The notes below the pieces were generated by a model that saw nothing but the letters and a program-made list of their open reading frames with translations, searched no databases and was not told the DNA's origin. Source: Verrucomicrobiota bacterium (GTDB lineage: Bacteria > Verrucomicrobiota > Verrucomicrobiia > Limisphaerales > SIBE01). Taken from it: a DNA stretch of 64,000 nt. Positions 1,542 through 21,201 of the stretch are shown one piece after another. How positions within the stretch are numbered: the stretch's first letter is position 1; every line of letters starts with the position of its first letter. Position numbers and translations under genes: made by a program. Location of the stretch: contig VHCZ01000002.1 of NCBI GenBank assembly GCA_016871535.1, positions 6,180-70,179 on the forward strand, given 5' to 3'.

Positions 1542-1853
1542 ATGCTTGGCCCTGCCGATTCCCGCCGCCGATGGTTCGGCATGTTTTATTTGCTGGTCGC
1601 GGGCGGGCTGCTGATCTGGGGACAGACGATATTGGAGCCGCGCCTGGGCAAAGGGCTTGGATTCATCCTGTACTGGCTCATCTGTTTTCTGTTCACAGCG
1701 CTGGCGATACTGACCGCGTTGCTCGACCTCTGGATTGTGAGAACACGCGCCCGTGTTGAGAAGAAACGGCTCCTCCGGCAGTCCGGGATTGAACCCCAAC
1801 CTCCCCCTGAAGAACCGGAGACACGGATTGGCGTGAAACGAAACGAAAGCTGA
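1542..1853 (+). CDS. small hypothetical membrane protein (2 predicted TM helices)
   Basis: Hydrophobic stretches FGMFYLLVAGGLLIWG and LGFILYWLICFLFTALAILTALLDLWIV. No recognisable family. Confidence 0.5.
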   Translation: MLGPADSRRRWFGMFYLLVAGGLLIWGQTILEPRLGKGLGFILYWLICFLFTALAILTALLDLWIVRTRARVEKKRLLRQSGIEPQPPPEEPETRIGVKRNES

Positions 1854-1865
1854 GCCGCCTCATTC

Positions 1866-2002
1866 ATCCTGGAAAACTTCCCGGTACGGTCACCCTGCTC
1901 CGCCCCATGAACCAGGCAGGGCAAGTCCATCCCGACGAGCCGCTCAACCACGTTGCGTGGAACACGTCCGACTCGGCTGGCTGGGGACAGGCTCGCCCTA
2001 CC
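1866..2002. repeat. hairpin repeat family 'GGTAGGGCGAG...CTCGCCCTACC', copy 1
   Basis: ...CCCATGAACC..GGCAGGGCAAGTCCATCCCGACGAGCCGCTC...GGAACACGTCCGACTCGGCTGGCTGGGGACAGGCTCGCCCTACC is homologous to 57111-57253. It lies between convergent genes. Confidence 0.7.
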
Positions 2003-2081
2003 TCCCATCTTCACCAGACAAAAAAAAGCCGCGCTCACCTGAGCGCGGCTGCAAGGAGAACCGATTTACCAAAGTGCGGAC

Positions 2082-5359: not shown

Positions 5360-6037
5360 ATGGACTGGAACGCCATCATCCTTTCGCTCCGGCTCGCTTC
5401 GCTGACGACGCTGATTCTCTTCCTGGCGGGCCTGCCCGCGGCCTACTGGCTGGCGACTTCAAGATGGCGGTGGAAATTTCTTGTCGAGGCCGTCGTGGCG
5501 CTGCCGTTGGTGCTGCCGCCGACCGTGCTCGGCTTCTACCTCCTGCTTGCCATGGGGCCACGCAGTCCCTTCGGCCGATTTTATGAGAGCCTCACGGGTC
5601 AATTGCTGCCGTTCTCCTTCGAAGGCCTGCTGGTCGCATCCGTGCTCTACAGCATGCCATTCACGGTCCAGCCGTTTGCGGCGGCCTTCGCGGCGGTTGA
5701 CCGCAAATTCATCGAAGCTTCCTGGTGCTTGGGGGAAACACGAGCGGGGACGTTCTTCCGCGTCATTCTGCCGCTGTCCTGGCCTGGTGTGCTCACGGGA
5801 ATGATCCTCAGCTTCGCCCACACGATTGGCGAATTTGGCGTCGTGCTCATGGTGGGTGGCAATTTGCCCGGCGCCACGCGAACGGTTTCGATTTCCATCT
5901 ACGACGCGATGCAGAGTCTCGACTACTCAGCGGCGGGCAAGACATCGCTCCTGTTGCTCGTCCTGTCGTTTGCTGTCCTCGCCGTCACCTACACGTTGCA
6001 ACGGAATGTCTGGGCAGTATGGCCGAAAAAATCGTAG
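5360..6037 (+). CDS. modB: molybdate ABC transporter permease
   Basis: 225 aa, 5-6 TM helices. The EAS..LG motif region FIEASWCLGETRAGTFFRVILP is typical of ModB/CysTW-family permeases. Confidence 0.9.
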   Translation: MDWNAIILSLRLASLTTLILFLAGLPAAYWLATSRWRWKFLVEAVVALPLVLPPTVLGFYLLLAMGPRSPFGRFYESLTGQLLPFSFEGLLVASVLYSMPFTVQPFAAAFAAVDRKFIEASWCLGETRAGTFFRVILPLSWPGVLTGMILSFAHTIGEFGVVLMVGGNLPGATRTVSISIYDAMQSLDYSAAGKTSLLLLVLSFAVLAVTYTLQRNVWAVWPKKS

Positions 6038-7113
6038 CGCAATTTGCCAGGCGATTTCCCGGCGGGCCGCTCCTCAACGTGGACGCGTTAAGCATCGCCT
6101 GCGGCCAACCATCGATCACGGTCCTTTTCGGCGCTTCCGGGGCAGGGAAGACTACGGTTCTCCGATGTCTGGCCGGGCTCGAACGGCCCGATTCCGGCGT
6201 GATCCGGTGCGGCGAGGAACTCTGGTTTGACGCCTCGACATCTGTCTTCCTGCCACCGCAAAAGCGAAACATCGGCTCGCTTTCCCAGGACTACGCGCTG
6301 TTCCCGCACCTGACCGTCGAAGCCAATATCGCCTACGGTCTGCGTGGCCTCGCGGCAAACGAACATTGCGCGCGGATCGGCGAAGTTGTGCACCTGCTCG
6401 ATCTGGCCGGACTGGAACGCCGTCTTCCCGCGCAGCTTTCCGGAGGCCAGCAACAACGCGTCGCCCTCGCCAGAGCCGTCGTGCGCCGGCCGCGCTTGCT
6501 CCTGCTCGACGAACCGCTGTCCGCGCTCGATTCGCCCACGCGCCTCCGCCTGCGCCGTGAACTGCGCCGTTTGCTCCTGCACCTGGGGATTCCCACTTTG
6601 CTCGTGACTCACGACCGACTCGAAGCGCTTTCGCTGGGCGACGATCTCGTGGTGATCGACAACGGAATGCTCGTGCAACGGGGCCCGGTGCAAGTGGTGT
6701 TCAGCCGTCCCGCAAACTTGGCGGTCGCATCCATCGTCGGCATTGAAACCGTGCTACCGGGTCACGTCGAAAGCGCCGCCGAAGGGCTGCTCGTGGTGTC
6801 CGTCGGCGAAGCCAAACTGGCCGCACTCGCATCGGACTTTCCCGCGCAGACGCGCGACGTATTCGTCTGTATCCGGGCCGAGGACGTCATGATTCAAAAG
6901 GGCGAGGATCGACCGAGCAGCGCGCGCAATCATCTGGCCGCGACGGTTGGATCTTTGACCCGAGAAGGTCCCATGGTGCGAATCGAGCTCGACTGCGGAT
7001 TCCCGCTCGCGGCCTGGCTCACCAAACAGGCGTGCGAGGAACTCGCCTTGAATTCCGGAGACCGGGTCGTGGCGTTGGTGAAGGCGCCCAACGTTCACAT
7101 TATACCCCGCTAA
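6019..7113 (+). CDS. modC: molybdate ABC transporter ATP-binding protein with C-terminal TOBE/Mop-like domain
   Basis: Walker A GASGAGKTT, signature LSGGQQQRVALARA, Walker B LLLLDEP. Start ATG 6019 overlaps the modB end; the longer ORF from 5725 is an overlap artefact. Confidence 0.9.
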   Translation: MAEKIVAQFARRFPGGPLLNVDALSIACGQPSITVLFGASGAGKTTVLRCLAGLERPDSGVIRCGEELWFDASTSVFLPPQKRNIGSLSQDYALFPHLTVEANIAYGLRGLAANEHCARIGEVVHLLDLAGLERRLPAQLSGGQQQRVALARAVVRRPRLLLLDEPLSALDSPTRLRLRRELRRLLLHLGIPTLLVTHDRLEALSLGDDLVVIDNGMLVQRGPVQVVFSRPANLAVASIVGIETVLPGHVESAAEGLLVVSVGEAKLAALASDFPAQTRDVFVCIRAEDVMIQKGEDRPSSARNHLAATVGSLTREGPMVRIELDCGFPLAAWLTKQACEELALNSGDRVVALVKAPNVHIIPR

Positions 7114-7207
7114 CCTCTCGCGCCGCTCCAGTCTGGTCCGGCATGGTCCGGCTGGTTTCGGATTTAATCGGTTGCATTTGTCCACTTACGCTCTAGACTT
7201 TGCAGGC

Positions 7208-7762
7208 ATGCGACTGACAAAACGTGGCGAATACGCACTTCGAGCGATGATCGACCTGGGCATGGCTCAGGAAACGGGCCGGCCCATGCTGCAGATCGCC
7301 GAAGTGGCCAACAAAGAGAATATCCCGATCAAATTCCTGGAAGCCATCCTGGTCGAATTGAAGGAAGCCGGATATCTGGACAGCAAGCGGGGCAAACACG
7401 GGGGCTATTTCCTGGCCAAACCGATGGATGCCATCCGCATCGGCGACGTCGTGAGAAAACTGGAAGGGCCCCTGGCGCCCATTGCCTGCGTCAGCCAGAA
7501 CTTCTACGAACGCTGTTCGTGTCCGGACGAGGCGCATTGCGGCTTGCGAATGCTGATGCTCGATGTGCGCAACGCCATCGCGAATATTCTGGATCGCTAC
7601 ACCCTCGCCCAGACGGTCCAGGTAGCCTTGCAGAAAATCCGGCGCGATGGATTGCCGGTCCCTTTCGCCAAACAGAACAGACCCAAGGACGCACGGCGCG
7701 ACGGATTCGCGCGCTCAGGAAAGAGCAAGCCCGGAAAGGATCGGGCAATCCGACGAGGTTAG
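7208..7762 (+). CDS. Rrf2 family transcriptional regulator (Cys-containing, possibly Fe-S binding)
   Basis: MRLTKRGEYALRAMIDLGMAQ...IPIKFLEAILVELKEAGYLDSKRGKHGGYFLA is the Rrf2 wHTH. Cys cluster CVSQNFYERCSCPDEAHC. Confidence 0.85.
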   Translation: MRLTKRGEYALRAMIDLGMAQETGRPMLQIAEVANKENIPIKFLEAILVELKEAGYLDSKRGKHGGYFLAKPMDAIRIGDVVRKLEGPLAPIACVSQNFYERCSCPDEAHCGLRMLMLDVRNAIANILDRYTLAQTVQVALQKIRRDGLPVPFAKQNRPKDARRDGFARSGKSKPGKDRAIRRG

Positions 7763-7764
7763 AC

Positions 7765-8865
7765 ATGTTAAATGAGTTAAATGGATTAAGAGGGTTGGCC
7801 TGGACAGCAAGCGTTTTGAGAGCCGGCTTCACGAAACTGCTCGGCATATTTGTAGGTCTCGGACTGACGGCAGCACAGACGGTCGAGGCAGAAAAGATCG
7901 TGGTTCGCGTAGGGCACTTCCCCAACTTGACTCACGCGCAGGCGGTGATTGCCCACGGGTTGTCGCGTCAAGGCAAGGGCTGGTTTGAACAGCGCTTAGG
8001 GCCCGGCATCGAAATTCAATGGTTTGTCTATAACGCAGGCCCGTCCGCGATGGAGGCGATCTTCACCAAGGCCATCGATCTCACCTACGTTGGCCCAAGC
8101 CCCGCGATCAACGCCCATCTCAAAGCGCGCGGGGAAGAAATCCGGATCGTGGCCGGAGCGTGCAGCGGCGGCGCGGCGCTCGTTGTCCAACCGGACGGAC
8201 GCATCAACGCCGACGAAGATTTCAAGGGAAAGAAAGTGGCGACGCCTCAGTTTGGCAACACGCAAGACGTCGCGGCACGCTCGTGGCTGCGATCCAGGGG
8301 GCATCGAGTCACCATGACCGGGGGCGACGTTTTGGTCGTCCCGACGTCCAACCCGGACCAGCTCGCGCTCTTCCAAAAAGGCGAGTTGGATGCGGTATGG
8401 ACGGTTGAACCCTGGGTGACCCGACTGATGCTTGAAGCCAAGGGCAAGGTCTATTTCGAGGAAAGCAAGCTTTGGCCGGAAACCAGGGGGCAATACGTCA
8501 CGACCCATTTGGTCAGCAGCGTGCGGTTTCTCAAGGAGCGGCCTGACCTTCTCAAAAAGTGGATCGCCGCGCACGTTGAACTGACGGATTGGATCAATCG
8601 GAATCCTGACGACGCCAAAAGGGCGCTTAACGAGGAAATCAAAGCGGAAACCACGCGCGCCCTCCCGCAGACCATACTCGACAGCGCGTGGAAGCGCCTG
8701 GAACTTACGCCGGATCCGATTCGTGCGTCGCTCTTAAAGTCCGCCGAAGACGCGCATCGAATCGGCTTCCTCCGCCAGAAACCCGACCTTTCGCGCATTT
8801 ACGAATTGAGGCTGCTGAACGAAGTGCTCAGAGAAAAAGGCCCGCAGCAGGAAGTGCTTCCATGA
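7765..8865 (+). CDS. ABC transporter substrate-binding protein, NitT/TauT (NMT1/SsuA-like) family
   Basis: KIVVRVGHFPNLTHAQAVIAHG...YNAGPSAMEAIFTKAIDLTYVGPSP is typical of SsuA/TauA-like SBPs. The start is uncertain: ATG 7765 lies inside the 9-mer repeat, while TTG 7816 gives the cleaner signal peptide MRAGFTKLLGIFVGLGLTAAQ. Confidence 0.85.
   Translation: MLNELNGLRGLAWTASVLRAGFTKLLGIFVGLGLTAAQTVEAEKIVVRVGHFPNLTHAQAVIAHGLSRQGKGWFEQRLGPGIEIQWFVYNAGPSAMEAIFTKAIDLTYVGPSPAINAHLKARGEEIRIVAGACSGGAALVVQPDGRINADEDFKGKKVATPQFGNTQDVAARSWLRSRGHRVTMTGGDVLVVPTSNPDQLALFQKGELDAVWTVEPWVTRLMLEAKGKVYFEESKLWPETRGQYVTTHLVSSVRFLKERPDLLKKWIAAHVELTDWINRNPDDAKRALNEEIKAETTRALPQTILDSAWKRLELTPDPIRASLLKSAEDAHRIGFLRQKPDLSRIYELRLLNEVLREKGPQQEVLP
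7767..7797 (+). repeat. 9-bp periodic GTTAAAT array, locus 1
   Basis: GTTAAATGA GTTAAATGG ATTAAGAGG GTTGG starts 5 nt after the Rrf2 stop (TAG 7760-7762). Confidence 0.6.
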
Positions 8866-9674
8866 GCGTCGATACCGAACTGCTCAACGTCCCTCCCGAA
8901 AAACTGGTCGTGGAAGGAGTGTCCAAAACCTTCCGGACCCAGCGCGGCTCGGTGCATGCGCTGGACAACGTCACTTTGCACGTGCGTGAGGGCGAATTCG
9001 TCTGCCTGGTCGGCCCGAGCGGTTGCGGCAAATCGACTTTGCTCAACATCATCGCTGGCCTGGAGATGCCAGATACCGGCAAAGTCCTGGCTGACGGCAA
9101 AGCGGTGACCGGCGCCGGCAGCGACCGGATGATGATGTTCCAAGAATCGGCGCTCTTTCCCTGGCTGGATGTGATGGGCAACGTTCTTTTTGGCCTGAAG
9201 CTCAAGCCCAATCTGGGGAACAAAGAGCGCCGCGAGGTCGCCAGATTTTACCTGCATCTGGTCGGGTTGGACAAATTCATGCGCTCGAACATTCATGAAT
9301 TGTCGGGGGGCATGAAACAACGCGTGGCTCTGGCTCGGGCTCTGGCGCCGAACCCTCGCGTCCTGTTAATGGACGAACCGTTCGCTTCCCTTGACGCTTT
9401 GACGCGCGAACAACTTTACGGCGATATCCAGGGAATCTGGGCGAAACGCCAGAAAACAATTGTCTTCGTGACTCACAACGTCCGGGAAGCCGCCTGTCTG
9501 GGCGATCGGGTGGTTTTATTCTCGCCGCATCCCGGACGCATCCAGGAGCAGTTCACGGTCGATCTCCCAAGGCCGCGCGACATCAGCAGCGTCGATCTGG
9601 CCAAATATTCCACGGAGATCACGCGCGCGTTGAAGCGCCATTTGAAGACCGAGACGTTGGAGGTGACCGAATGA
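8862..9674 (+). CDS. ABC transporter ATP-binding protein, NitT/TauT family
   Basis: Walker A GPSGCGKST, signature LSGGMKQRVALARAL, Walker B VLLMDEP. ATG overlaps the upstream stop (ATGA). Confidence 0.9.
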   Translation: MSVDTELLNVPPEKLVVEGVSKTFRTQRGSVHALDNVTLHVREGEFVCLVGPSGCGKSTLLNIIAGLEMPDTGKVLADGKAVTGAGSDRMMMFQESALFPWLDVMGNVLFGLKLKPNLGNKERREVARFYLHLVGLDKFMRSNIHELSGGMKQRVALARALAPNPRVLLMDEPFASLDALTREQLYGDIQGIWAKRQKTIVFVTHNVREAACLGDRVVLFSPHPGRIQEQFTVDLPRPRDISSVDLAKYSTEITRALKRHLKTETLEVTE

Positions 9675-10435
9675 AGCGATGGATGGTTTTCGCGCTCTTT
9701 TTCGCGGTGGTGGTTGGCATCTGGGAAATCTTGGTGCGCGAAGGGATCTGGCCGCCGGTGATGGCCCCATCGCCGCTGGGGATTGGGAAATATTTTTTTG
9801 AATCCATCAAAGACCGCTCTCTGCTGGACGCCAGCTTCATCACTTTGAAACGGCTCCTGCTCGGATATGCCATTGGCCTGGGAGCCGGCCTGCCCTTGGG
9901 ATTGCTGAACGCGCGATTCAAATTCTGTGAAGATACCATCGGACTGCTAGCTCTGGGTTTGCAGACGTTGCCTAGCGTTTGTTGGGCGCCGCTGGCGTTG
10001 CTCTGGTTTGGCCAGACCGAAGCTGCCATTTTCTTCATCGTTATCATGGGATCCGTTTGGTCCATCATCCTGGCCACGGACGCGGGAGTTCGCAACGTGC
10101 CCCCTATTTACGCTCGCGCGGCACGGACCATGGGTTCGTCCGGTCTTCACACGTGGTTCAAGGTCATTTTCCCGGCCTCGCTACCTTTCATCGTCAGCGG
10201 TATGAAGCAGGGCTGGGCCTTTTCCTGGCGTTCCTTGATGGCGGCGGAGATTTACGTGACCATCATGACCGGAATTGGGCTCGGCCAAGTCCTGCACTAT
10301 GGTCGCGAACTGCATGAAATGGACCAGGTCCTCGGCATTATGATCGTGATTGTTCTCATCGGGTTGTTGGCAGACAAAATCCTGTTCTCGCCGATGGAGC
10401 GTTTCTTGCATCGGCGCTGGGGAACGGCGAAGTAG
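9671..10435 (+). CDS. ABC transporter permease, NitT/TauT family
   Basis: 254 aa with 6 hydrophobic segments. ARAARTMGSSGLHTWFKVIFPASLP is an EAA-like loop. 4-nt overlap with the ATPase gene. Confidence 0.9.
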   Translation: MKRWMVFALFFAVVVGIWEILVREGIWPPVMAPSPLGIGKYFFESIKDRSLLDASFITLKRLLLGYAIGLGAGLPLGLLNARFKFCEDTIGLLALGLQTLPSVCWAPLALLWFGQTEAAIFFIVIMGSVWSIILATDAGVRNVPPIYARAARTMGSSGLHTWFKVIFPASLPFIVSGMKQGWAFSWRSLMAAEIYVTIMTGIGLGQVLHYGRELHEMDQVLGIMIVIVLIGLLADKILFSPMERFLHRRWGTAK

Positions 10436-10463
10436 AGTTTTTCTCAACTAACGCCTTGACCCA

Positions 10464-11048
10464 ATGACCATTCAACGTGTCTGCGTTTACTGCGCGTCGA
10501 GCCGCCAAATTGACGCCGCGTATCTGAAAGCTGCGAATCGGCTTGGCCAGGTGCTTGCGCAGCATTCCGTGACCATCGTGTATGGCGGTGGAGCGGTGGG
10601 TTCGATGGGCCAGCTCGCAGACGGCGCCCTCGCCGAGGGCGGAAAGGTGATCGGCATTCTGCCGCGCTTCATGAACGACCTGGAATGGGGGCACAAAGGT
10701 CTGACGGAACTGCGGTTGGTCCACGATCTCCATGAACGCAAGCGCCTCATGATCGGAGGCGCCGATGCGGTCATCGCGCTGCCGGGCGGTTGCGGAACGC
10801 TGGAAGAACTGTTCGAGGCTATCACATGGAAACGCCTGGGGCTCTACTTCAATCCTATCGTGATCGTGAACACGCGCGATTTCTTCCGGCCCGCCTTGGA
10901 GTTGCTTGAGCGCTGCATCCAGGAGCGCTTCATGGATCCAAGGCATCGGGAGTTGTGGAGCGCGGCTGAACTGCCGGAGGATGTGATTCCCGCGATTCAA
11001 AATGCGCCACGCTGGCCAGCCGAAGCCCGCGAATTCGCGGCGATTTGA
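10464..11048 (+). CDS. LOG family (TIGR00730) nucleotide phosphoribohydrolase
   Basis: VCVYCASS...IVYGGGAVGSMG...PGGCGTLEELFEAITWKRLG are LOG family signature motifs. Confidence 0.85.
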   Translation: MTIQRVCVYCASSRQIDAAYLKAANRLGQVLAQHSVTIVYGGGAVGSMGQLADGALAEGGKVIGILPRFMNDLEWGHKGLTELRLVHDLHERKRLMIGGADAVIALPGGCGTLEELFEAITWKRLGLYFNPIVIVNTRDFFRPALELLERCIQERFMDPRHRELWSAAELPEDVIPAIQNAPRWPAEAREFAAI

Positions 11049-11182
11049 AAACGCCGGCATCCCATATCCCAATCTCCAGAAAGAATTTTGAAGAAAAGAG
11101 TTGAAATGTGGTTACATGTGACTACATTGGGCGCGTGAAGAGAAAAAAGACATTCCAATTCCCGGAGCATGTGCCATCAGCC

Positions 11183-11464
11183 ATGATCTTGAAAGAGACC
11201 GTGGCTCTGCCTGGGGTAGGCCTTTCGATTCCAGTGCGGGCCGCGAAGGCCAAGCTTTCGGCGCTCCTGGAGCTGGTGGCAAGCGGACGCGAGATCACCA
11301 TCACCAGCGATGGCAACCCGAAGGCGGTGCTTTCGCCAGTGCACAAACCGGCTCGCAAAAAATTCACCGGCACCTGGGAACATCTCAAGACGATGCCCGT
11401 GCAAACCGCGGGTCCGTTCGCGGAGGAAATCATTCGCGCTGATCGTGATGGTCGAGGCTGGTAA
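11183..11464 (+). CDS. type II antitoxin, Phd/YefM family
   Basis: IPVRAAKAKLSALLELVASGREITITSDGNPKAVLSP is a typical Phd/YefM N-terminal fold. It sits 5 nt upstream of a PIN toxin gene. Start ATG 11183 was chosen over GTG 11108. Confidence 0.7.
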   Translation: MILKETVALPGVGLSIPVRAAKAKLSALLELVASGREITITSDGNPKAVLSPVHKPARKKFTGTWEHLKTMPVQTAGPFAEEIIRADRDGRGW

Positions 11465-11469
11465 GGTCC

Positions 11470-11904
11470 ATGTACCTCGACTCGTGCGTCATTGTCAAAC
11501 TGGTCAGTCGCGAACCGGAAAGCGAAGCGTATCACCGCCTGGTGATCGGCCAATTCCTTGTTACATCGGAACTGGCCGTGGCGGAGGTTCGATCCGCCCT
11601 GCTCAGCAAAGAGCGGGCAGGGCGGATTTCCCGTCGCGACCGCCTTACTGGTTGGGCCTTGTTTCAGGAGAAGGTCCGCGATCAAGAGTTCTTGTTGCTT
11701 CCTCTGGATCGCCATGTGATCGAGCGGGCGGGCGCTGTCATTGAACAATGCCATCCGCAAGTGCCGCTCCGAACTTTCGATGCGATTCATGTTGCAACTG
11801 CGGAATTACATGGTGGCGATCAAATGTGCAGCAGTGACCAGCGTGTCTGCGACGCGTCGGATTTGATCGGGCTCTCGCTTATTCGGCTCCCGCAAGCAGA
11901 ATAG
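11470..11904 (+). CDS. vapC: type II toxin, PIN-domain ribonuclease VapC
   Basis: MYLDSCVIVKL (first acidic residue) ... FDAIHVATAELHGGDQMCSSDQR are PIN acidic motifs. Pairs with the upstream antitoxin. Confidence 0.8.
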   Translation: MYLDSCVIVKLVSREPESEAYHRLVIGQFLVTSELAVAEVRSALLSKERAGRISRRDRLTGWALFQEKVRDQEFLLLPLDRHVIERAGAVIEQCHPQVPLRTFDAIHVATAELHGGDQMCSSDQRVCDASDLIGLSLIRLPQAE

Positions 11905-12345
11905 CTCCGGGAGAAATTCTTCGTCCTGAGTTCGCCAGAACGGTCTCCCAAAACGAGAAAGCATCGAAACGGCTGTTTGCTCCAAGTTCGATCCGGCAAA
12001 AGGTGGATTCGATCCCAAAACGAGCCTGCTGGAATTCCACACTTTGGCATTTCACCCCCTGATCCCTCAGACTGCCCCTCGCCGAACGCCTGTCGCCCCT
12101 CGGCGGTTTCGATCCCTCGGTTCCTGGGAGAAAAATATCTCACTGGCGCGCCATGTCAGTGCCGGAACAGATTGCCAATAACGCTGGCCTCGGGACCGTA
12201 AGTTGCGAGCCTGGTCTTGCGGTCTATGGAGCAGGAATGCCTCGATGTCTGTTTGCCGGCAGGTTTTCCAGTGTCGCCATGCGCTGCTTGCCGCAGACGG
12301 AAAAGAATAGCATGATTCCTTTGCTGGCCTTCAAGGCCATGACTC

Positions 12346-15192
12346 ATGACTGCTGAGAATACTCCACCGATCGGCAATGGGCCGAAAAGAAAATACTTCC
12401 GCGCGGTTGGCCCGCGCCTGCGAGTTTTGCTGTTCTTTGTCTTTGGACTGGTCGCAATCCTTGGCGCCAATTCCGCCTATCTTCTCAGCGTTACGATTCT
12501 GGAATGGGCCACGAAGCTGACTTACCAGAATTATTTCTATCAGTACATGTTCCTCGCCCACCTCGTGTTGGGCCTGGTTTTGATTGTGCCTTTTCTAGTT
12601 TTTGCCGCGGTTCACATCAAGAACTCCTATCATCGCCCGAATCGGCGAGCCGTGCGGGTGGGGCTTGGTTTGTTCGGAGTGTGTCTCGTGCTCCTCTTTT
12701 CCGGAGTGGCGTTGACCCGGCTGGATTTCTTTGAAATCAAGAACCCGAATGTCCGGTCGATGGCTTACTGGGCGCACGTCATCACGCCGGTGCTTGCGGT
12801 CTGGCTTTACATCCTTCATCGGCTGGCGGGACCCCGAATCAAATGGCGCGTCGGCTTGGCCTGGGCCGGCGTCGTGGGCGTGGTCGTGGCCGCGATGGTC
12901 CTGTTGCATGCGCAGGATCCGCGGAAGTGGAACGTGCAAGGGCCAAAGGAAGGGGAAAAATATTTTCTGCCCTCGCTGGCGCGGACTGCATCCGGAAATT
13001 TCATCCCCGCCCGGACGCTGATGATGGACGATTACTGTCTAAAATGCCATCAGGACGCTTACGCCGGCTGGTTTCACAGCGCGCATCACTTCAGTTCCTT
13101 CAACAACAAGCCGTACCTGTTCAGCGTCCGCGAGACGCGCCAGGTGTCACTGAAACGGGATGGCTCGGTGAAGGCGTCGCGGTGGTGCGCGGGTTGCCAC
13201 GACGTGGTGCCGTTCTTCAGCGGCGCGTTTGACGATCCCGATTTCGACCTGGAGAAGCATCCGACCTCGCAGGCGGGCATCACGTGCACGGCCTGCCACG
13301 CGATCGTCAATGTCAACAGCACGCAAGGCAACGCGGACTACACGATCGAGGAGCCGATTCACTACCCGTTCGCTTTCAGCACGAACGGATTCCTTCAGTT
13401 CATCAACCAGCAACTCGTCAAAGCCAAACCGGAGTTTCACAAGAAAACCTTCCTGAAGCCGCTGCACAAGAACGCGGAGTTCTGCTCGACCTGCCACAAG
13501 GTCAGCCTTCCCTACGAACTGAATCACTACAAGGAATTCCTTCGCGGCCAGAATCACTACGACACCTTTCTGTTAAGCGGCGTGTCCGGTCACAACGCCA
13601 AAAGCTTTTACTATCCGCCGAAGGCCAAGGAGAATTGCGCGAGCTGCCACATGCCGCTGAAGGCGTCGGAAGATTTCGGCGCGAACTTCTTCAATCCGAC
13701 GAACCGCTCCACGCGGTTCATCCACGATCATCTGTTTCCGGCGGCGAACACGGGCGTGGCTCACCTCCGCAACCAGCCGGACATCGTGAAGGCGCATCAG
13801 GATTTTCTGAAGGACTGCGCGCGGGTCGATATTTTCGGGGTCAAGGAAGGCGGCACGATTGACAGCCCCCTCATTGCGCCGCTGCGGCCCAACGTGCCGG
13901 CATTGAAACGCGGCCAAACTTACCTGTTGGAAGTGGTTTTGCGGACTCTGACCGTGGGGCACCCCCTGACGCAAGGCACCGCCGATTCAAACGAACTTTG
14001 GACCGACGTGAAAGTCAGCAGCGGTGGACGGGTGATCGGCCGCAACGGGGGTCTCGGCCCGTTCAACGAAGTCGATCCCTGGTCGCACTTCGTCAACGTG
14101 TACATGCTCGACAAGGACGGGAATCGGATCGACCGCCGGAATCCGCAGGACATTTTCACGCCGCTCTACAATAACCAGATTCCGCCAGGCGCCGCGCAGG
14201 TCGTGCACTATGCGCTCACGGTTCCGGAGGATGCGACGGAGCCGCTCACGGTCGAGGTGAAATTCCAATATCGGAAGTTCGACACGATTTACATGAACTA
14301 CGTCCTGGGGCAGGGCTACACCAACGGGGCGCCACTCCAGGTGATCAACGACCTCCCAATAACAACGATCGCCTCGGACAAAGTGACGTTCCAGGTCGAA
14401 GGTGGCCAGGCGCTGCCCTCAACTCTCAACTCCCAACTCTCAACCATTCCCGAATGGCAGCGCTGGAATGACTACGGCATCGGCCTCTTGCTCAAAGGCG
14501 ACAAAGGCAGCGAAAAAGGCGAATTGATCCAGGCGGCCCAGGCCTTTTCCGAAGTGGAAAAACTGGGCCACGCGGACGGCCCGCTCAACCAGGCCCGTGT
14601 TTTCTTCAAAGAAGGCCGCCTGGACGACGCCGTGACCGCCCTGCAGCGCGCAGTCAAATTCAACCCGCCCGCCCCGCGCTGGACGGTGGCGTGGTTCAAC
14701 GGACTGGTGAACAAACAGAACGGATTTCTGGACAAAGCGATCACGGAATTCCGCAGCATCCTGGAAGACCGCTATCCGGAGTTGGAGAAGCGCGGATTCG
14801 ATTTCAGCAAGGATTACGAAGTCATCAACGAACTCGGCCAGACGCTGGTCGAGCGCGCCAAACTGGAGCAAGGCGAAGAAAACAAGGAACGCCGGCGCGA
14901 GTTCCTGCTCCAGGCCCAAGCTCAATTTGAAAGAACACTCGCGCTCGACAGCGAGAATCTCACGGCTCACTACAATCTGATGCTGATCCACACCCAGCTT
15001 GGCGACGACGCCAAGGCCGCCGAGCATCGGAAGCTTCACGAGCGGTACCGCCCCGACGACAACGCGCGCGACCGCGCCATCGCGATCCATCGCCGCGCCA
15101 ACGCCGCCGCCGATCACGCCGCGCAGGCGATCGTGATTTATCCGCTCCAACGGCCACAGGCGCTCGGATTGTCCAGTGCAGGGAAGCCATGA
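12346..15192 (+). CDS. membrane-anchored multiheme (5x CXXCH) cytochrome c with C-terminal TPR repeats
   Basis: About 5 N-terminal TM helices rich in His. Heme motifs CLKCH, CAGCH, CTACH, CSTCH, CASCH. C-terminal TPR text (AHYNLMLIHTQLGDDAKAAEH). Confidence 0.85.
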   Translation: MTAENTPPIGNGPKRKYFRAVGPRLRVLLFFVFGLVAILGANSAYLLSVTILEWATKLTYQNYFYQYMFLAHLVLGLVLIVPFLVFAAVHIKNSYHRPNRRAVRVGLGLFGVCLVLLFSGVALTRLDFFEIKNPNVRSMAYWAHVITPVLAVWLYILHRLAGPRIKWRVGLAWAGVVGVVVAAMVLLHAQDPRKWNVQGPKEGEKYFLPSLARTASGNFIPARTLMMDDYCLKCHQDAYAGWFHSAHHFSSFNNKPYLFSVRETRQVSLKRDGSVKASRWCAGCHDVVPFFSGAFDDPDFDLEKHPTSQAGITCTACHAIVNVNSTQGNADYTIEEPIHYPFAFSTNGFLQFINQQLVKAKPEFHKKTFLKPLHKNAEFCSTCHKVSLPYELNHYKEFLRGQNHYDTFLLSGVSGHNAKSFYYPPKAKENCASCHMPLKASEDFGANFFNPTNRSTRFIHDHLFPAANTGVAHLRNQPDIVKAHQDFLKDCARVDIFGVKEGGTIDSPLIAPLRPNVPALKRGQTYLLEVVLRTLTVGHPLTQGTADSNELWTDVKVSSGGRVIGRNGGLGPFNEVDPWSHFVNVYMLDKDGNRIDRRNPQDIFTPLYNNQIPPGAAQVVHYALTVPEDATEPLTVEVKFQYRKFDTIYMNYVLGQGYTNGAPLQVINDLPITTIASDKVTFQVEGGQALPSTLNSQLSTIPEWQRWNDYGIGLLLKGDKGSEKGELIQAAQAFSEVEKLGHADGPLNQARVFFKEGRLDDAVTALQRAVKFNPPAPRWTVAWFNGLVNKQNGFLDKAITEFRSILEDRYPELEKRGFDFSKDYEVINELGQTLVERAKLEQGEENKERRREFLLQAQAQFERTLALDSENLTAHYNLMLIHTQLGDDAKAAEHRKLHERYRPDDNARDRAIAIHRRANAAADHAAQAIVIYPLQRPQALGLSSAGKP

Positions 15193-15515
15193 GCCAGAAC
15201 AAGACCACCGCCCGTCAAGCTCCGGCTCGACGAGAACGATTTGGTGCAGTGGCAATCATTCTCTAGGCCAGCGGATGATCTGCGGCGAAGTGTTGGTGTG
15301 ATTCGCCCTACGCTGGCCATCCATCCAGATGGATGGCACGGTCGGGGGGGGCGCACAGAAATCCCAATTGTTGCCACCATCAGCTTCAACGCATTCAGTG
15401 AGCATGAGTGCAAACGTGTTCGACCGGGAAGGCACAGTAAATCCGCTTGGCTGCTCGGACTGGATTGGTGAAACTTGCGCTCGGCCCTAAAGTGCCGCAC
15501 GGTTTCCGACCCAAG

Positions 15516-16070
15516 ATGAACATCGTTATTTGCCCGACTCTGGATGGCCTCGCACGAATATGGCGACAGGGCTCGACCTTCACCGTGACTCTCCCGGCCG
15601 AGGCGCCCCGTCTCCCGGACAACGAAACGAGCAAGGCCGCGCCGGCCGATCCGTCCAACCTGTTGCCATCCGCGAGCACGACGGTGTTGGTCGTGGACGA
15701 CGATCCCGCGGTGCTCGACTTGATGAGCCGCGTCCTCGCCAAAGAGGGGTGGCGCGTGGCGACGGCCAACAACGGCCCGGCGGGACTGGACCTCGCGCGG
15801 AAGCTGCAACCCGACGTCATCACGCTCGACGTGATGATGCCGGAGATGGACGGCTTCGAGTTCGTCCGGGAATTTCGCCGACAGCCGGAGGGCCAGGCTG
15901 TGCCGATCATCGTCATCACGGCCAAAGACCTCACGGAAGATGATCGCCGCCGGCTCAACGGCTACGTCACGCAAGTCCTCGAAAAGGGCGCTTACCGTCT
16001 CGATCAACTCCTCCATGAAATCCGGCGCTTGGTCATGGCCCACGCCCCGCACCGACGCAAAGAAAGGTAA
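15516..16070 (+). CDS. receiver (REC) domain protein carrying a remnant of a histidine-kinase ATPase C-terminus
   Basis: REC: VLVVDDDPAVLDLMSRVL...DVITLDVMMPEMDGFEF...IIVITAKD. It is preceded by ...GLARIWRQGSTFTVTLP, the end of HATPase_c, but no DHp or N/G1 boxes lie upstream. Start is uncertain. Confidence 0.65.
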   Translation: MNIVICPTLDGLARIWRQGSTFTVTLPAEAPRLPDNETSKAAPADPSNLLPSASTTVLVVDDDPAVLDLMSRVLAKEGWRVATANNGPAGLDLARKLQPDVITLDVMMPEMDGFEFVREFRRQPEGQAVPIIVITAKDLTEDDRRRLNGYVTQVLEKGAYRLDQLLHEIRRLVMAHAPHRRKER

Positions 16071-16076
16071 CCTCCT

Positions 16077-16454
16077 ATGGCCCGCATCCTCCTCGTCGAA
16101 GATAACGAAATGAACCGCGACATGCTTTCACGGCGGTTGGAACGCCGCGGCCATCAGGTCGTCCTCGCGCTCGACGGCCAGCAAGGCCTGGACGCCGCCC
16201 GTCAACAGCAGCCCGACGTGATCCTCATGGACATGAGCCTGCCCGTCGTGGATGGCTGGGAAGCCACGCGCCAGTTGAAGAAGGACGCCGCCACTCAAGC
16301 CATTCCCATCATTGCCCTGACCGCGCATGCCATGTCGAGTGACGAACAGAAAGCGCGCGAAGCCGGGTGCGACGATTTCGACACCAAGCCCATCGAACTG
16401 GACCGGCTCTTGGGGAAGATTCAGGCGCAACTGGACCGGCGCCCGCGCGCATGA
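16077..16454 (+). CDS. single-domain response regulator (CheY-like)
   Basis: [17 protein letters not shown]...[17 protein letters not shown]...IIALTAHAM...DDFDTKP are complete REC motifs. Confidence 0.9.
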
Positions 16455-17977
16455 GTTCGACCGCTTCACCTGGAACTCCGGCAGCCGAGGTTCGCCGTTC
16501 CAAGCCCGAGTCGGCCCGCGCGCGGAGTTTGCATTTGGCCAAAGTGCGGCACGACCTGCGCACGCCCATCAACCATGTCTTGGGTTATTGCGAAATGCTG
16601 CAAGACGAGCCCGAGGATCCGGCCTGGCCCAACCTCGCGGAGGATCTCCAGAGAATTCTCACCGGCGGAAAGCAGGTTTTGTCGCTGGTCAATTACTACT
16701 TCGACCCCGAGCAAGTAAAGCCGGCCAATCCCGATCTTCGTCAAGTGCAGCACGAGTTGCGCACGCCGTTGAACCACATCATCGGCTACAGCGAAATTCT
16801 CCAAGAGCAAGCGCTCGAGCTCGGCCGCGCCATGGTGCACGCTGACCTCGGCAAAATCCGCGCCGCCGCGTTCCTCCTGCTGGACCTCTTGGAGATGTAT
16901 CTGATCCGCGGTCAAGGCGCGCCGTCGGCCGACCCGGGCCTTCTCGAATCCATCTGGCCCGCGCCGCCCGCCCAGGCCGCGGCGCTGCCCGATACCACCC
17001 TTTCCCCGGTTTGGGCCGACGCCGCCATTTTGGTTGTGGATGACGATCCGTTGAACCGGGAAATGCTGGAGCGGCGGTTGCGGCGGCAAGGCTGCAAAGT
17101 CTTTTTGGCCGAGAATGGCGACCAAGCGTTGACGGCGCTGCGCGGCCGGTCCGTCGATCTCATCCTCTTGGACATGGTCATGCCGGGACTGGACGGCTTC
17201 CAAGTCATTGCTCAGTTGAAAGCCGACGCCGCGCTCGCCCCCATCCCGGTCATCATGCTCTCGGCTTCCGACGAAGCCGCCACGGCCGTGCATTGCATCA
17301 AAATGGGGGCCGACGATTTCCTGCCCAAACCCTGCAACACGACGCTCCTGCTGGCGCGCATCGAGTCTTCCCTGGCCAAGAAACGGCTGCAGGAATTGCA
17401 CCGCGCCGGCGCCGGCTATTTCCACGACAAAGGCACGCTGCGTCCGGATTCGCCTTCCTACGTGGAGCGGCAGGCGGATCGAGAACTGTTCGAGGGCCTG
17501 CTCCGCGGCGAATTGTGCTACGTCCTTACTTCGCGGCAAATGGGCAAATCCTCGCTCATGGTCCGCACCGCGCACAAACTGCGCGAGCGCGGCGTCAGTG
17601 TCGTCGCCCTCGATTTGACCGCCATCGGCCAGAACGTGACCCCGGAGCAATGGTACGACGGGTTGCTCAGCCGCATCGGACGCGCGTTGCGATTGGAAGA
17701 TGAGTTCGAGGATTTTTGGCTGCGGCATGAGCGACTCGGCCCCGTGCAGCGCTTGTTCACGGCCCTCCGCGAGGTCGAACTAAAACGCCACGCCCGGTCG
17801 CTCGTCATCTTCGTGGATGAAGTCGATGCCGTGCGGAACCTGCCGTTCAACACCGATGAATTCTTTGCCGCCGTGCGCAATCGCATCTACGCGCGCGTCT
17901 TCGATGACGCCTGGGTTGCGGAACAACTCGGCCTGATTTCAACCGCGGACCATTCGACGCGATCGGAGCGCGAATGA
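16451..17977 (+). CDS. tandem HisKA(DHp)-REC-AAA-like(STAND-type) protein lacking an HATPase_c domain, probably 3'-truncated
   Basis: Two H-boxes [15 protein letters not shown] and [32 protein letters not shown]...[15 protein letters not shown]-like [10 protein letters not shown]...[11 protein letters not shown]...[12 protein letters not shown] 16451 overlaps the upstream stop. Confidence 0.8.
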
Positions 17978-18062
17978 AACCGGGCCAAATCGCAATTCCT
18001 GGCCAGCAGAACGCGAACCAGCTGGAGGTCGATTGCCGGGCGGACATCGGCATTCCTGCGCT

Positions 18063-19574
18063 TTACGGCGACACAACCCGCCAGGTTCCGCCGGGGCGGT
18101 GCGGGGTCAGGAATTCGGTTCGAGTCAGCCTGATGCCGTGGAGATACCAAACGGCCAGTGTTCCCTCGGTTCGATGCTGAAAGAGAAAATCCGTGTTCCC
18201 GTCCGAATCCCAATCTGCCGTCGCAACCAATCGCCATTCTGCGTCGCCGGTCTCCGCGGGATGAGGAATACCTACGCCGATGAGTTTTTTGCCTTGCAGA
18301 TACCACACAGCGAGCGCGCCGTCTGAGAATTGCAGCGCCAGGTCCACATAGCCATCTGCGTTGAAGTCGCCGCTGCCCACGATGAGGAAGTCCCGGTCCC
18401 CGACGTTGCTCGGAACGAGAAATTCGACCGCTTTCATGGTTTGCAGGTTCACCAACCAGGCCGCCAGAAATCCGTCCGCATCCTGGAAGATGAGATCCGG
18501 CAATCCGTCGCCATTGAAATCGCCCTTCTGCGCCGGCGCGTCTTCGACCCGCACCTGAAAAGAAGCGGTTGCCGCCCGGCCTTCGGAATCCATGACCGAA
18601 AGCGTGATGCGCGCCCCACCGACCTGATCTGTCGCCGGCGTGATCACGAGCGTTCGATCCGCCCCGTCGCCGCCGAAGACGAAACTGGAGTCCCGCAGCA
18701 ACGCCGGATTGTCGGAGGTGGCCGAAACCGTCAAGAACTCCGGCGCGGTCTCGGCATCGGCGATCTCTGTCGGGCAGTGCAGCCAAGTGGGATGACTACC
18801 GCACGCTCGAAGGAGATGTGCCGGAGTCGGTCACGATTCCGGCCGGGGCAACCACCGCGAGGATTTCTTTATCAGCGCCGGCGACGGTGACCATCCAGAT
18901 TACGCGGCATAACGAGCCGCCGAGCCTTTCGTTCCTTGGCGATCTGATAGGAGCCGTGCTTGCCGTGCTTAGCGATGGCGCTCGCCAGGAATTCCCAAGC
19001 CTTTTTGGCCTTCTCCAGATACGCTCGCGCCGCTTCAGGGTAACTTCGTTGAAACCGGCGACGAAGCGCATTGAGCCAGCGCCGCCGCCGCGGCCGCCGT
19101 CACTGAGGTCGTTTTCGGCCAGACAATTTGCGGATCGCCCCGGTCCGGCAGCACGTCGGTCTCATACGCGCGGTTGCGGGGATAAACCAGGAAATACAAC
19201 CCGCCGTCCGCGTCCTGCATTTTGGCGAGGAAATCGGCCTCCCATTTCGCTTCCTGAATCAGGTCGCTGATTCCATCCCCGCTTTCGGGAATCCCCAAAT
19301 TGTCCAGCTCCGCGACTCCGGTGAACGCGTCCGCGGCGAAGACCAGCGTGTGAATCAAGGCCGCGGAATTGATCGTGTATTTGCTGTAATCGCCCGCGTC
19401 GTGGTGGCCGCCGGAAACATCGATGCGCCCCCGGTTGACGAAAGCGAACAGGCTGGATTCAAAATCCTTCAGGCGCGGCGCGGTGTGGCGCAAAATAATT
19501 GAGAAATTAATCCGCGTCAGTTCCAGCACCGCAGGGGAAAGAATTCGCAACTGGTGCGACCCCGGCTCGGGCAA
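18063..19574 (-). pseudogene. mosaic of gene fragments: GH9 glycoside-hydrolase N-terminal piece (frameshifted) joined to a cadherin/FG-GAP(VCBS)-repeat fragment
   Basis: 19035-19574: ...VSGGHHDAGDYSKY...EAKWEADFLAKMQDADGGLYF (GH9). GH9-like text continues in another frame (SYPEAARAYLEKAKKAWEFL). 18063-18790: GDFNGDGLPDL, GDFNADGYVDL, ADWDSDGNTDF (FG-GAP). Confidence 0.55.
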
Positions 19575-19808
19575 GAATCAGACAAGCGTCATTCTCTCCT
19601 ACTCTTAATCCTAATCCGTGTGTCCGCTGGGGAGAGATGAAGATTATGAGTAAGATTAGGAGCAGGAGACCCTGACAGACGTCTGCCGCGCACCGTGGCC
19701 TATTCAGCGAGATTCTCGGACGCCCCTCCGTGGAATGAGATTGCAGGGACCGGCCGAGTTGACAATAATCCAATTGAACCAAATGGTTAACGCATCAGCG
19801 CCTGTCCA

Positions 19809-20453
19809 ATGATCGAGTGGAACATTCAGAGCCGCGCGCATGCCTGTCAGGCGTGCCACAAGCCGTTCGCCGACAAGGAACCTTTTCACACCTTGCTGTT
19901 CGATCACAAAAGCGCTTACGAGCGGCTGGATGTCTGCGAGAACTGCTGGAGCACCCAATACAGCCAGGGCGCGACGGACCGCAAAGGTTTCATTTCCTAC
20001 TGGCAGAGCATCTATACCGTGCCTCCCGCGGCGCCGCCGGATCCGATCCAGAAGGAAACGGCCGAGTCACTGTTGCGCAAACTCATCGAGCAGAATGATC
20101 CGAGCCATGCGGCGGCCCGGTTTATCCTCGCCGTCATGCTCGAACGGAAGCGTCTGCTGAAGGTCAAAGCCCAGCTTTTGGAGCATCAGCAAAGGATTTT
20201 TGTTTACGAGCACGCGGGCACCGGCGACCTGTTCCAAATTCCCGATCCGAACCTGAAGTTGGATAAACTCGAGGAGGTGCAGCGTGAAGTCGCCCGGTTG
20301 CTCGAGCATGGCGTGAACCCGCGTGCCCCCGCGGCGTCGGGAACCGAGGCGCAAAAGGAGAGCGGTTCCGGCCCCGGAGGAACCGAGAACAAGACGGACG
20401 GATCGCAATCGACTGAAGAATCTATCGCGGTGGCGCAATCCTCTACCGTTTGA
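19809..20453 (+). CDS. conserved hypothetical protein with N-terminal CxxC...CxxC zinc-ribbon-like motif
   Basis: HACQACHKPF...LDVCENCW. Ungapped ORF of 214 aa with coding-like composition, directly upstream of rnc. Confidence 0.6.
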   Translation: MIEWNIQSRAHACQACHKPFADKEPFHTLLFDHKSAYERLDVCENCWSTQYSQGATDRKGFISYWQSIYTVPPAAPPDPIQKETAESLLRKLIEQNDPSHAAARFILAVMLERKRLLKVKAQLLEHQQRIFVYEHAGTGDLFQIPDPNLKLDKLEEVQREVARLLEHGVNPRAPAASGTEAQKESGSGPGGTENKTDGSQSTEESIAVAQSSTV

Positions 20454-20463
20454 ACTTTGGACT

Positions 20464-21201
20464 GTGTCGGACCTTGGCCCACTTCAGAGTCGTTTAGGCT
20501 ACGCCTTTCGAGATGTCGAACTGCTGCGTCTGGCGGTGACGCATCCGTCGGTCGCGCACGAGCACGGCAACAACGTCCACCACAACCAGCGGCTCGAATT
20601 TCTGGGGGATGCGGTTCTGCAGTTGGTTCTGACGCGCGTGTTGTATGAAAGATTCCCGGACTTCGGCGAAGGGCCGTTGACCAAAGCCCGCGCGCAATTG
20701 GTCAACCGCCGTTCGCTGGCCGAACATGGCCGCCGCCTCGAACTGGGACAGCACCTGATCCTCAGCCGCGGCGAGGAACTCAACGGAGGACGAGATCGTC
20801 CGTCCACGCTTGCCGACGCGTTTGAAGCGTTGCTGGGCGCGATCTTCATGGACGGCGGATTTGAATCGGCTCAGGAATTTATTCTCCGCCAGTTTCGCGA
20901 TGTGTTCGGCGATCTGGAAGTGTTGCCCAATCTGGAAAACCCGAAAGGCGAACTCCAGGAGGTCCTGCAAGCCCGCTCGCCTGAGCCGCCACGTTATATC
21001 ATGTTGTCCGTGTCTGGCCCGGACCACGATCGCGTCTTCGAGTGCGCCGTGTTTTATCGAAAGGAAGAACTCGGCCGGGGAAGCGGCAAGAGCAAGAAGG
21101 AGGCGGAATCTCAAGCCGCGCTCAACGCTCTGGTGGCGCTCCACCAGTCCACGACAGAAGCGAATGAACCGGAGGAATCAGAGGCCGGTGATAATCCGTG
21201 A
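20464..21201 (+). CDS. rnc: ribonuclease III
   Basis: LGYAFRDVELLRLAVTHPS...NQRLEFLGDAVLQLV (RNase III signature) and the C-terminal dsRBD GSGKSKKEAESQAALNAL. GTG 20464 was chosen as start; the longer ORF from 20323 overlaps the upstream gene. Confidence 0.9.
   Translation: MSDLGPLQSRLGYAFRDVELLRLAVTHPSVAHEHGNNVHHNQRLEFLGDAVLQLVLTRVLYERFPDFGEGPLTKARAQLVNRRSLAEHGRRLELGQHLILSRGEELNGGRDRPSTLADAFEALLGAIFMDGGFESAQEFILRQFRDVFGDLEVLPNLENPKGELQEVLQARSPEPPRYIMLSVSGPDHDRVFECAVFYRKEELGRGSGKSKKEAESQAALNALVALHQSTTEANEPEESEAGDNP

Follow-up and report, generated by a model that had tools for sequence, protein, structure and literature searches.

The 64,000-nt stretch of contig VHCZ01000002.1 analyzed here (the window), from a Verrucomicrobiota bacterium, contains at 15193-17977 a two-component cluster without a kinase. 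It is formed by three consecutive open reading frames (ORFs) on the + strand, encoding a receiver (REC) protein (gene 1), a CheY-like receiver (gene 2), and a protein with two tandem DHp units, a receiver and part of an AAA_35 ATPase (gene 3). We consider it likely that this cluster is what deletions have left of a conserved Verrucomicrobial phosphorelay operon, which decayed recently and has neither a kinase nor a working output, and not a circuit designed to work without a kinase. The ancestral form would be the one found intact in the related locus L011 (L0xx denotes relative loci or contigs in assemblies and P0xxx database proteins), where a putatively envelope-sensing hybrid kinase is followed by a CheY-like receiver and a terminal regulator of ~670 aa. 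In the window, the kinase has been lost upstream of its last HATPase strand, its two receivers have recombined in frame into one chimera, and a 543-bp in-frame deletion has removed strands 4 and 5 of the regulator's ATPase core, together with its lid and the larger part of its winged helix. Only ~100 bp are left of a second kinase copy or fragment downstream of the regulator, and the adjacent minus-strand glycoside hydrolase gene is broken as well. The homologies, both junctions and the fixation across assemblies come directly from tool results. The ORFs that survive (chimeric REC, CheY and DHp-DHp-REC) are most likely leftovers of recent date, still free of stops.

The three ORFs (15447/15468-16070, 16077-16454 and 16451-17977) lie downstream of an intact cytochrome/TPR gene, as seen from ORF calls and Pfam, and Pfam domains in all of them confirm the three consecutive + strand genes of the initial annotation, which had been made from the sequence alone. 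The parts of the cluster are:

15193-15566, + strand: spacer without assignable content between the cytochrome/TPR gene and the kinase scrap, with a G8 tract (15344-15351) and an in-frame TAA (15438-15440)
15468-16070, + strand: gene 1, 200-aa ORF with a single receiver, left over from the 3' end of a hybrid histidine kinase; the GTG start is the one called in other assemblies
15567-15602, + strand: QGSTFTVTLPAE, ~12 residues of the last HATPase_c beta-strand, the sole recognizable HATPase_c piece
15678-15831, + strand: N-terminal half of the chimeric receiver, REC1-derived according to blastn and half-domain identities
15832-15853, + strand: REC1/REC2 crossover zone, ATGATGCCGGAGATGGACGG motif encoding MMPEMDG, covered by both the REC1 and the REC2 alignments
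15854-16070, + strand: C-terminal half, REC2-derived according to the same two lines of evidence, with the native kinase C-terminus and stop
16077-16454, + strand: gene 2, intact CheY-like single-domain receiver, 125 aa
16451-17977, + strand: gene 3, tandem-DHp-REC-AAA_35 protein of 508 aa, internally deleted in frame; start overlapping the stop of CheY (ATGA)
16523-16906, + strand: tandem DHp (HisKA) units with two H-boxes
17027-17365, + strand: gene 3 receiver
17429-17878, + strand: retained N-terminal AAA_35 half, to FFAAVR, with Walker A (SRQMGKSS) and Walker B (FVDEVD)
17873-17878, + strand: junction of the 543-bp (181-codon) in-frame deletion, microhomology GTGCGCAA, placed by DNA alignments to L092 and L011
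17879-17977, + strand: retained family C-terminus, with the RNRIY and W that are nearly invariant among family members, followed by 15 additional codons and the stop

Structure of the three genes and of the surrounding sequence

With 200 aa against 525 to 2057 aa in the orthologous kinases, gene 1 is a remnant also by its length, and the same ORF is called in 6/6 assemblies covering it (L001-L006). The sole polymorphism within 15193-17977, a +C indel at 15461 in one assembly (L005), shifts the possible start TTG 15447 out of frame, and thus gene 1 must start at or after GTG 15468. The native start of the gene is gone; its first ~70 codons are unassignable, and no ribosome-binding site is evident. 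Ahead of its receiver (Response_reg, 85.5 bits), the initial annotation had placed ~40 residues of a HATPase domain, of which only ~12 could be recovered: QGSTFTVTLPAE, which aligns with KGSVFTVVFPAQ (L011 kinase residue 1777 onward) and with KGSAFTVILPRE in L092. The motif TGLVKLALG, read at first as part of the same domain, is at shuffle level. The G8 tract and the TAA noted in the initial annotation are both in the sequence, and the 374 bp that contain them (15193-15566) gave no Pfam match at E up to 10; their three + frames aligned with three orthologous kinases at shuffle level (Smith-Waterman with shuffle controls, z below 1.5). A divergent or frameshifted HATPase_c upstream of gene 1, with TGLVKLALG as its G2 box, was considered and is ruled out by these two results.

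The receiver of gene 1 is the in-frame homologous recombination product of the two tandem receivers of the kinase, as shown by where its alignments change partner. In blastn, window 15678-15853 corresponds to L011 6255-6430 and window 15681-15853 to L092 2639-2811, both within REC1, while window 15832-15991 corresponds to L011 6769-6928, within REC2. The identities of the half-domains to the L011 and L092 kinases change in the same way, with 66-74% to REC1 versus 42-47% to REC2 in the N-terminal half, and 64-66% to REC2 versus 25-26% to REC1 in the C-terminal half. Since the pair of tandem receivers is present in the kinases of L011, L092 and L097, the two-receiver state is taken as ancestral. 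No database protein with a collinear single receiver like that of gene 1 was found above 61% identity.

Gene 2 is the complete CheY-like receiver that the initial annotation had described (Response_reg 93.9 bits, profile 1-110 of 111), and its product is 86% identical to the 124-aa CheY of the intact L011 operon. A CheY-like gene is found immediately upstream of the regulator in 8/11 other loci or contigs. Together with the receiver of gene 3 (106.3 bits, with DDD, the phospho-acceptor Asp in LILLDMVMP, and PKP), the receivers of all three genes score above the PF00072 threshold of 30.2 bits.

Gene 3, whose ORF can also be read from 16367 (Pfam was run on 16367/16451-17977), carries two H-box/DHp units followed by a receiver, with no HATPase_c, just as the initial annotation had read it. 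HisKA is matched in two stretches with 67.9 bits (threshold 26.9), and the H-boxes form a 64-nt direct repeat (D2; 16542-16605 and 16743-16806, 201 nt apart) with 77% identity. AlphaFold2 models residues 1-160 as four helices (pLDDT 88.5, pTM 0.79), and the tandem-DHp segment would thus be compatible with a single-chain four-helix bundle. Foldseek with this model retrieved only generic single-chain four-helix bundles with E above 0.05, from which no specific relationship to HPt proteins can be claimed. In the cluster as a whole, HATPase_c was not found by Pfam at E up to 0.01 in gene 1, CheY or gene 3, nor at E up to 10 in the upstream frames and the downstream scrap, and the cluster thus lacks the catalytic domain with N, G1 and G2 boxes of a functional histidine kinase.

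The ATPase part of gene 3 matches AAA_35 (PF14516) with 64.8 bits against a threshold of 27, but only over profile positions 3-166 of 331, and is thus an incomplete domain. The initial annotation had the NTPase stop ~35 aa after Walker B. This was wrong in kind, as the family C-terminus is kept and 181 codons have been lost internally and in frame. Residues 16-467 of the orthologue P0006 align with window 16523-17878 at 80% identity, and residues 646-667 (YLAIRNRIYARAFDARWVREQL) with window 17864-17929 at 68%. At the DNA level, the blastn alignment to L092 breaks at window 17878 (L092 5230) and resumes at window 17873 (L092 5774), and that to L011 behaves likewise; the microhomology at the junction is ~6-8 nt. 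The lost NTPase half was also looked for in the other frames downstream and is absent, the protein tail being the true family C-terminus. In the P0006 model, the deleted segment (468-648) takes with it a strand at 482-488, the GHPYLTQ-bearing helices of the lid and the larger part of the C-terminal winged-helix-like hairpin, so that three core strands remain and strands 4 and 5 are lost. Since only three core strands are left, we infer from this model that the ATPase of gene 3 can neither fold nor work. With 508 aa compared with 665-680 aa in its orthologues, gene 3 is also a remnant by length.

The sequence next to the cluster contains further gene fragments, listed here with the intact gene on the other side:

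17978-18084, + strand: second kinase scrap, ~100 bp, directly after the gene 3 stop
18063-18734, - strand: FG-GAP/cadherin-like fragment, 223 aa, with an FG-GAP_3 match
19035-19574, - strand: N-terminal fragment of a GH9 glycoside hydrolase, 179 aa, matching only positions 43-164 of 444 of the GH9 profile
12346-15192, + strand: intact cytochrome/TPR gene, 948 aa, with multiheme motifs (Cytochrome_C554, MtrC-like) and C-terminal TPR repeats

In the kinase scrap, NRAKSQFLA, the start of an H-box, is encoded at 17978-18004 in the frame of gene 3, and NANQLEVDCRADIG..GDTTRQ, which precedes the N-box, at 18010-18084 one frame over. The two pieces match residues 1487-1495 and 1586-1612 of the L011 kinase, and the scrap therefore carries an internal deletion of its own. 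Although it has no Pfam match at E up to 10, blastn aligns window 18021-18052 with L011 5591-5622 (87.5% over 32 nt, E 3e-5). It could derive from a second flanking kinase or from the rearranged upstream one; on the P0020 contig a kinase lies downstream of the regulator, and a gene in that position would thus account for a kinase scrap after gene 3. On the minus strand, the GH9-like text goes on in another frame, and 18063-19574 look like the remains of a decayed large secreted glycoside hydrolase. Single-nucleotide polymorphisms at 18503 (A/G) and 19040 (G/T) segregate among the assemblies, the latter changing the called ORF from 179 to 164 aa. The decay is concentrated in ~4.4 kb between intact genes.

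The cytochrome/TPR gene lies directly upstream of the decayed cluster on the same strand, with no terminator-like site in between. A scan for promoters and terminators returned a number of sites not above that in shuffled sequence, and Rfam gave no matches on 14500-20500. Further upstream, a PhdYeFM-type antitoxin and a PIN-domain toxin form a pair at ~11108-11904 (+ strand), which is called in the matching assemblies L001-L005.

The parent regulator family and its genomic context

The nearest relatives of gene 3 are proteins of 665-680 aa with 74-79% identity, which contain HisKA, REC and a complete AAA_35. Around 40 database clusters of 650-700 aa share the tandem DHp + REC + AAA_35 architecture, mostly from Verrucomicrobiota where the source is named. 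An alignment of 29 members shows no variation in the His of the first H-box, the Asp (LLDMxMP) and Lys (PKP) of the receiver, Walker A (QMGKSS) and Walker B (DE), and next to none in GHPYLTQ and the C-terminal RNRIY. The second H-box is lost in the most distant aligned members; across 43 proteins the first His is invariant and the second at least 90% conserved, in agreement with the assignment to HisKA. No HATPase_c is listed in the precomputed Pfam results for the ~40 family members, and given that it is absent from all 29 aligned orthologues, its lack in gene 3 is ancestral and not a result of decay. The initial annotation had reasoned that orthologues with the same domain boundaries would speak against decay. 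For the missing HATPase_c this is indeed the case, while in length the 508-aa window protein departs from its orthologues as a decayed copy does.

P0006 is modeled by AlphaFold2 (pLDDT 79) with four long helices, a receiver and a P-loop domain that includes a helical region and ends in a beta-hairpin. The STAND assignment proposed at first is only loosely apt: the nearest folds are 2qen and 2fna, the intact orthologue has the NTPase, the helical region and the hairpin but no C-terminal repeat or sensor domain, and AAA_16 reaches 23.2 against a threshold of 32.6. A DHp-DHp-REC cassette with ~48% identity, in which each His is at least 90% conserved, is found in dozens of proteins (P0073-P0120) ahead of other outputs, either PP2C (SpoIIE) or class III cyclase domains, and REC-AAA_35 proteins of 530-560 aa without DHp are also common. 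NCBIfam has no family-level model for the protein, PADLOC gave no link to a defense system, and a sequence search of the PDB matched the receiver only. A scan of genome contigs found mostly distant AAA_35-only relatives in other phyla and one full-length match, and was uninformative on orthology. In the literature, nothing specific was found on PF14516/AAA_35 or on CA-less DHp-REC proteins, and no description of the tandem DHp + REC + AAA_35 architecture, in line with the initial annotation, which knew of no such combination. The regulator is thus a new variant built from known parts, its family is uncharacterized, and the copy in the window is broken.

The genes around the regulator differ between loci:

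L011: 2057-aa hybrid kinase (Laminin_G_3, CarboxypepD_reg, Reg_prop/Y_Y_Y, HisKA, HATPase_c and two RECs), then 124-aa CheY, then 670-aa regulator
L097: Laminin_G_3 protein, then HisKA-HATPase-REC-REC kinase, then CheY, then regulator
L094 and L096: CheY and regulator, with the kinase genes in divergent orientation
P0020 contig: CheY and regulator, followed downstream by a kinase on the same strand
P0004 contig: cut ORF, then CheY, then regulator
P0011 contig: REC-only gene, then CheY, then regulator
L095, L098 and L099: regulator alone

A Laminin_G_3 kinase adjoins CheY and regulator in L011, L092, L094, L096, L097 and the P0020 contig, so that this type of kinase and CheY are frequent but not obligatory partners of the regulator. 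In L092, which belongs to the 79%-identical lineage, the kinase is itself damaged: its ORF (1589-3367) joins residues 916-1202 to ~1755-2050, and the loss of residues ~1203-1754 has taken the transmembrane region, HisKA and most of HATPase_c, with both receivers, CheY and a full-length regulator kept. This deletion has other endpoints than the loss in the window. Should the 17978-18084 scrap come from the orthologous kinase, the two losses would be independent, since the window keeps pieces that L092 lacks. In L097, from a lake metagenome, the regulator is followed by a PilM/Amuc_1100/secretin (type IV pilus-like) cluster (5845-12417).

In the intact system, the kinase would autophosphorylate and hand its phosphoryl group on, either to its own receiver or to CheY. 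The tandem DHp of the regulator, which has no CA domain, would be an internal relay point for histidine phosphotransfer, or else a phosphatase, and the regulator's own receiver would gate an archaeal-type Walker ATPase (AAA_35 with a winged-helix-like hairpin). For the DHp pair, we infer the phosphotransfer role from the conserved His, the absent CA, and the linkage to a hybrid kinase and CheY. Going further, it is possible, and proposed here tentatively, that the intact ~670-aa family represents an undescribed end-station of phosphorelays, in which a pseudo-dimeric tandem DHp takes phosphate from the kinase receiver or from CheY and hands it to its own receiver, which switches the ATPase with its winged-helix tail, DHp-DHp-REC being a portable "relay-in-a-box" input module. 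If so, the repeated loss of the adjacent kinase core, in the window and in L092, would leave regulators that other kinases could feed.

Remnant, assembly artifact or working module

Truncations such as these might come from assembly or sequencing, through collapse between repeated receiver motifs or errors in the G8 homopolymer, and the REC1/REC2 junction does lie in a repeated 20-nt motif that short-read assemblers could collapse. This origin is very unlikely, to the point of being negligible, since the assemblies are concordant and the ORFs elsewhere in the window are intact. Ten independent assemblies (JGI, ENA and Logan; three pipelines, different samples) match the locus at 99.94-100% identity over 2.4-13.5 kb, with the same gene layout in all 10, both junctions included, and an identical G8 tract in 6/6 assemblies covering that stretch. 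The microhomology at the gene 3 junction is too short for a collapse, and the uninterrupted ORFs in the rest of the window, up to 1275 aa, indicate that there is no general frameshift problem. The exact 508-aa protein of gene 3 is encoded on 18 contigs (JGI, ENA and Logan) and is annotated by NCBI as a response regulator of a Verrucomicrobia metagenome-assembled genome. Given that no full-length gene 3 allele closer than 79% identity is present among 5.8 billion proteins, the deleted form appears fixed. Mobile elements or long repeats able to explain the deletions were not found, the only repeats being the paralogous REC and H-box motifs.

The initial annotation had left the choice between a decaying phosphorelay and a DHp-only module coupled to a STAND-type switch, and each is right in part: the family is a real new combination and the window copy of it has decayed. 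Several observations weigh against decay as the whole explanation and would fit a remodeled, working minimal module, in which a kinase encoded at another locus would feed the chimeric REC, CheY and DHp-DHp-REC, and these would serve as a sink or shuttle for phosphate or as a phosphatase node. The two lesions that fall within reading frames (the REC1/REC2 fusion and the deletion in gene 3) preserve the frame, and none of the three open ORFs has acquired a stop. The retained part of gene 3 does not diverge faster than its orthologues (mean identity to outgroups 0.645, orthologue range 0.622-0.653), a relative-rate test gave no signal of relaxed selection in this gene, and all family-invariant residues are kept, with the catalytic His, Asp and Lys intact. 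Both H-boxes retain the H-[DE]-x-x-T pattern, which is needed for phosphatase activity in HisKA kinases. Regulators without an adjacent kinase are also found elsewhere: the P0011 contig has a REC-only gene ahead of CheY and the regulator, suggesting that a kinase-less layout may be tolerated or used, the regulator stands alone in L095, L098 and L099, and L092 has lost the kinase core and kept the full regulator.

Against a working module stand the lost native start of gene 1, with its ~70 unassignable codons and the indel at 15461, and the half ATPase of ~150 residues, which is unable to complete a five-stranded sheet and resembles debris more than design, as well as the surrounding 4.4 kb with at least three other gene fragments. 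The argument from reading frames is softened, as a fusion of the receivers keeps the frame by construction, and for the gene 3 deletion the chance of doing so was one in three. The normal rate of divergence would be expected if the deletion is very recent, or if selection still acts on the DHp-REC part. Since the best-conserved part of the retained gene 3 is, if anything, the ATPase half, which would be useless, a recent deletion is favored over long-term selection, with some use of the DHp-REC part still possible. Taken together, we regard a working module as unlikely, and the remnant of a recently decayed operon as the probable explanation.

Significance and comparison with known systems

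As a consequence, annotators should not take genes 1 and 3 for a working circuit without a kinase. The locus shows, in a natural and well-resolved case, how a two-component operon breaks down, with a homologous recombination between tandem receivers giving an in-frame chimeric receiver and a microhomology deletion in the ATPase, both lesions being apparently fixed in a freshwater Verrucomicrobial population. The parent family is conserved and unstudied, and its single chain brings together a CA-less tandem DHp, a receiver and an ATPase of archaeal type, with a sister cassette that would drive PP2C and cyclase outputs. Should the DHp pair be an internal phosphotransfer station, this would represent a new wiring option for multistep phosphorelays and the first regulatory context for AAA_35, a domain of unknown function.

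The closest parallels to the tandem DHp in function are Spo0B, ChpT and PhyT, in which a HisKA/DHp-type hairpin with a phosphorylatable His and no working ATP-binding domain stands between receivers in a multistep phosphorelay; ChpT and PhyT have been described as DHp-based kinase-inactive phosphotransferases (PMC3433190, PMC5898713). Those are, however, stand-alone homodimers with a CA-like pseudo-domain, whereas here two tandem DHp units share one chain without such a domain and are fused to a receiver and an ATPase, and the phosphotransfer is predicted. The "incomplete histidine kinases" of the P2CS classification (bioRxiv 10.64898/2026.02.27.708494) likewise have HisKA and lack HATPase_c, but this is a bookkeeping class and not a mechanism.

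On the output side, the receiver located N-terminal to a P-loop ATPase recalls the REC-AAA+ proteins of the NtrC/NtrX type, which provide the top whole-chain Foldseek matches (5m7o, 1ny5) and whose logic, phosphorylation gating the assembly of the ATPase, would be expected here as well. The whole-chain TM is low, though (0.23-0.29 of the query), the ATPase is AAA_35 and not Sigma54_activat, and a winged-helix-like hairpin takes the place of the Fis-type helix-turn-helix. At the domain level, the best neighbors of the AAA_35 part are archaeal Walker ATPases of the PF01637 type (2qen, PAB2304; 2fna, SSO1545; TM 0.59-0.63 of the target over ~375-382 columns), with which it shares the P-loop core, the helical lid and the C-terminal winged helix. 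The identity to these proteins is only 16-17%, they lack receiver and DHp inputs, and little is known of what they do themselves. On the input side, the L011 kinase resembles the hybrid two-component systems of Bacteroides (HTCS type) in its Reg_prop/Y_Y_Y-type sensor repeats, HisKA, HATPase_c and REC, and differs from them in the absence of an AraC output and in having two receivers, Laminin_G_3 and CarboxypepD_reg; in the window, this kinase is almost entirely deleted.

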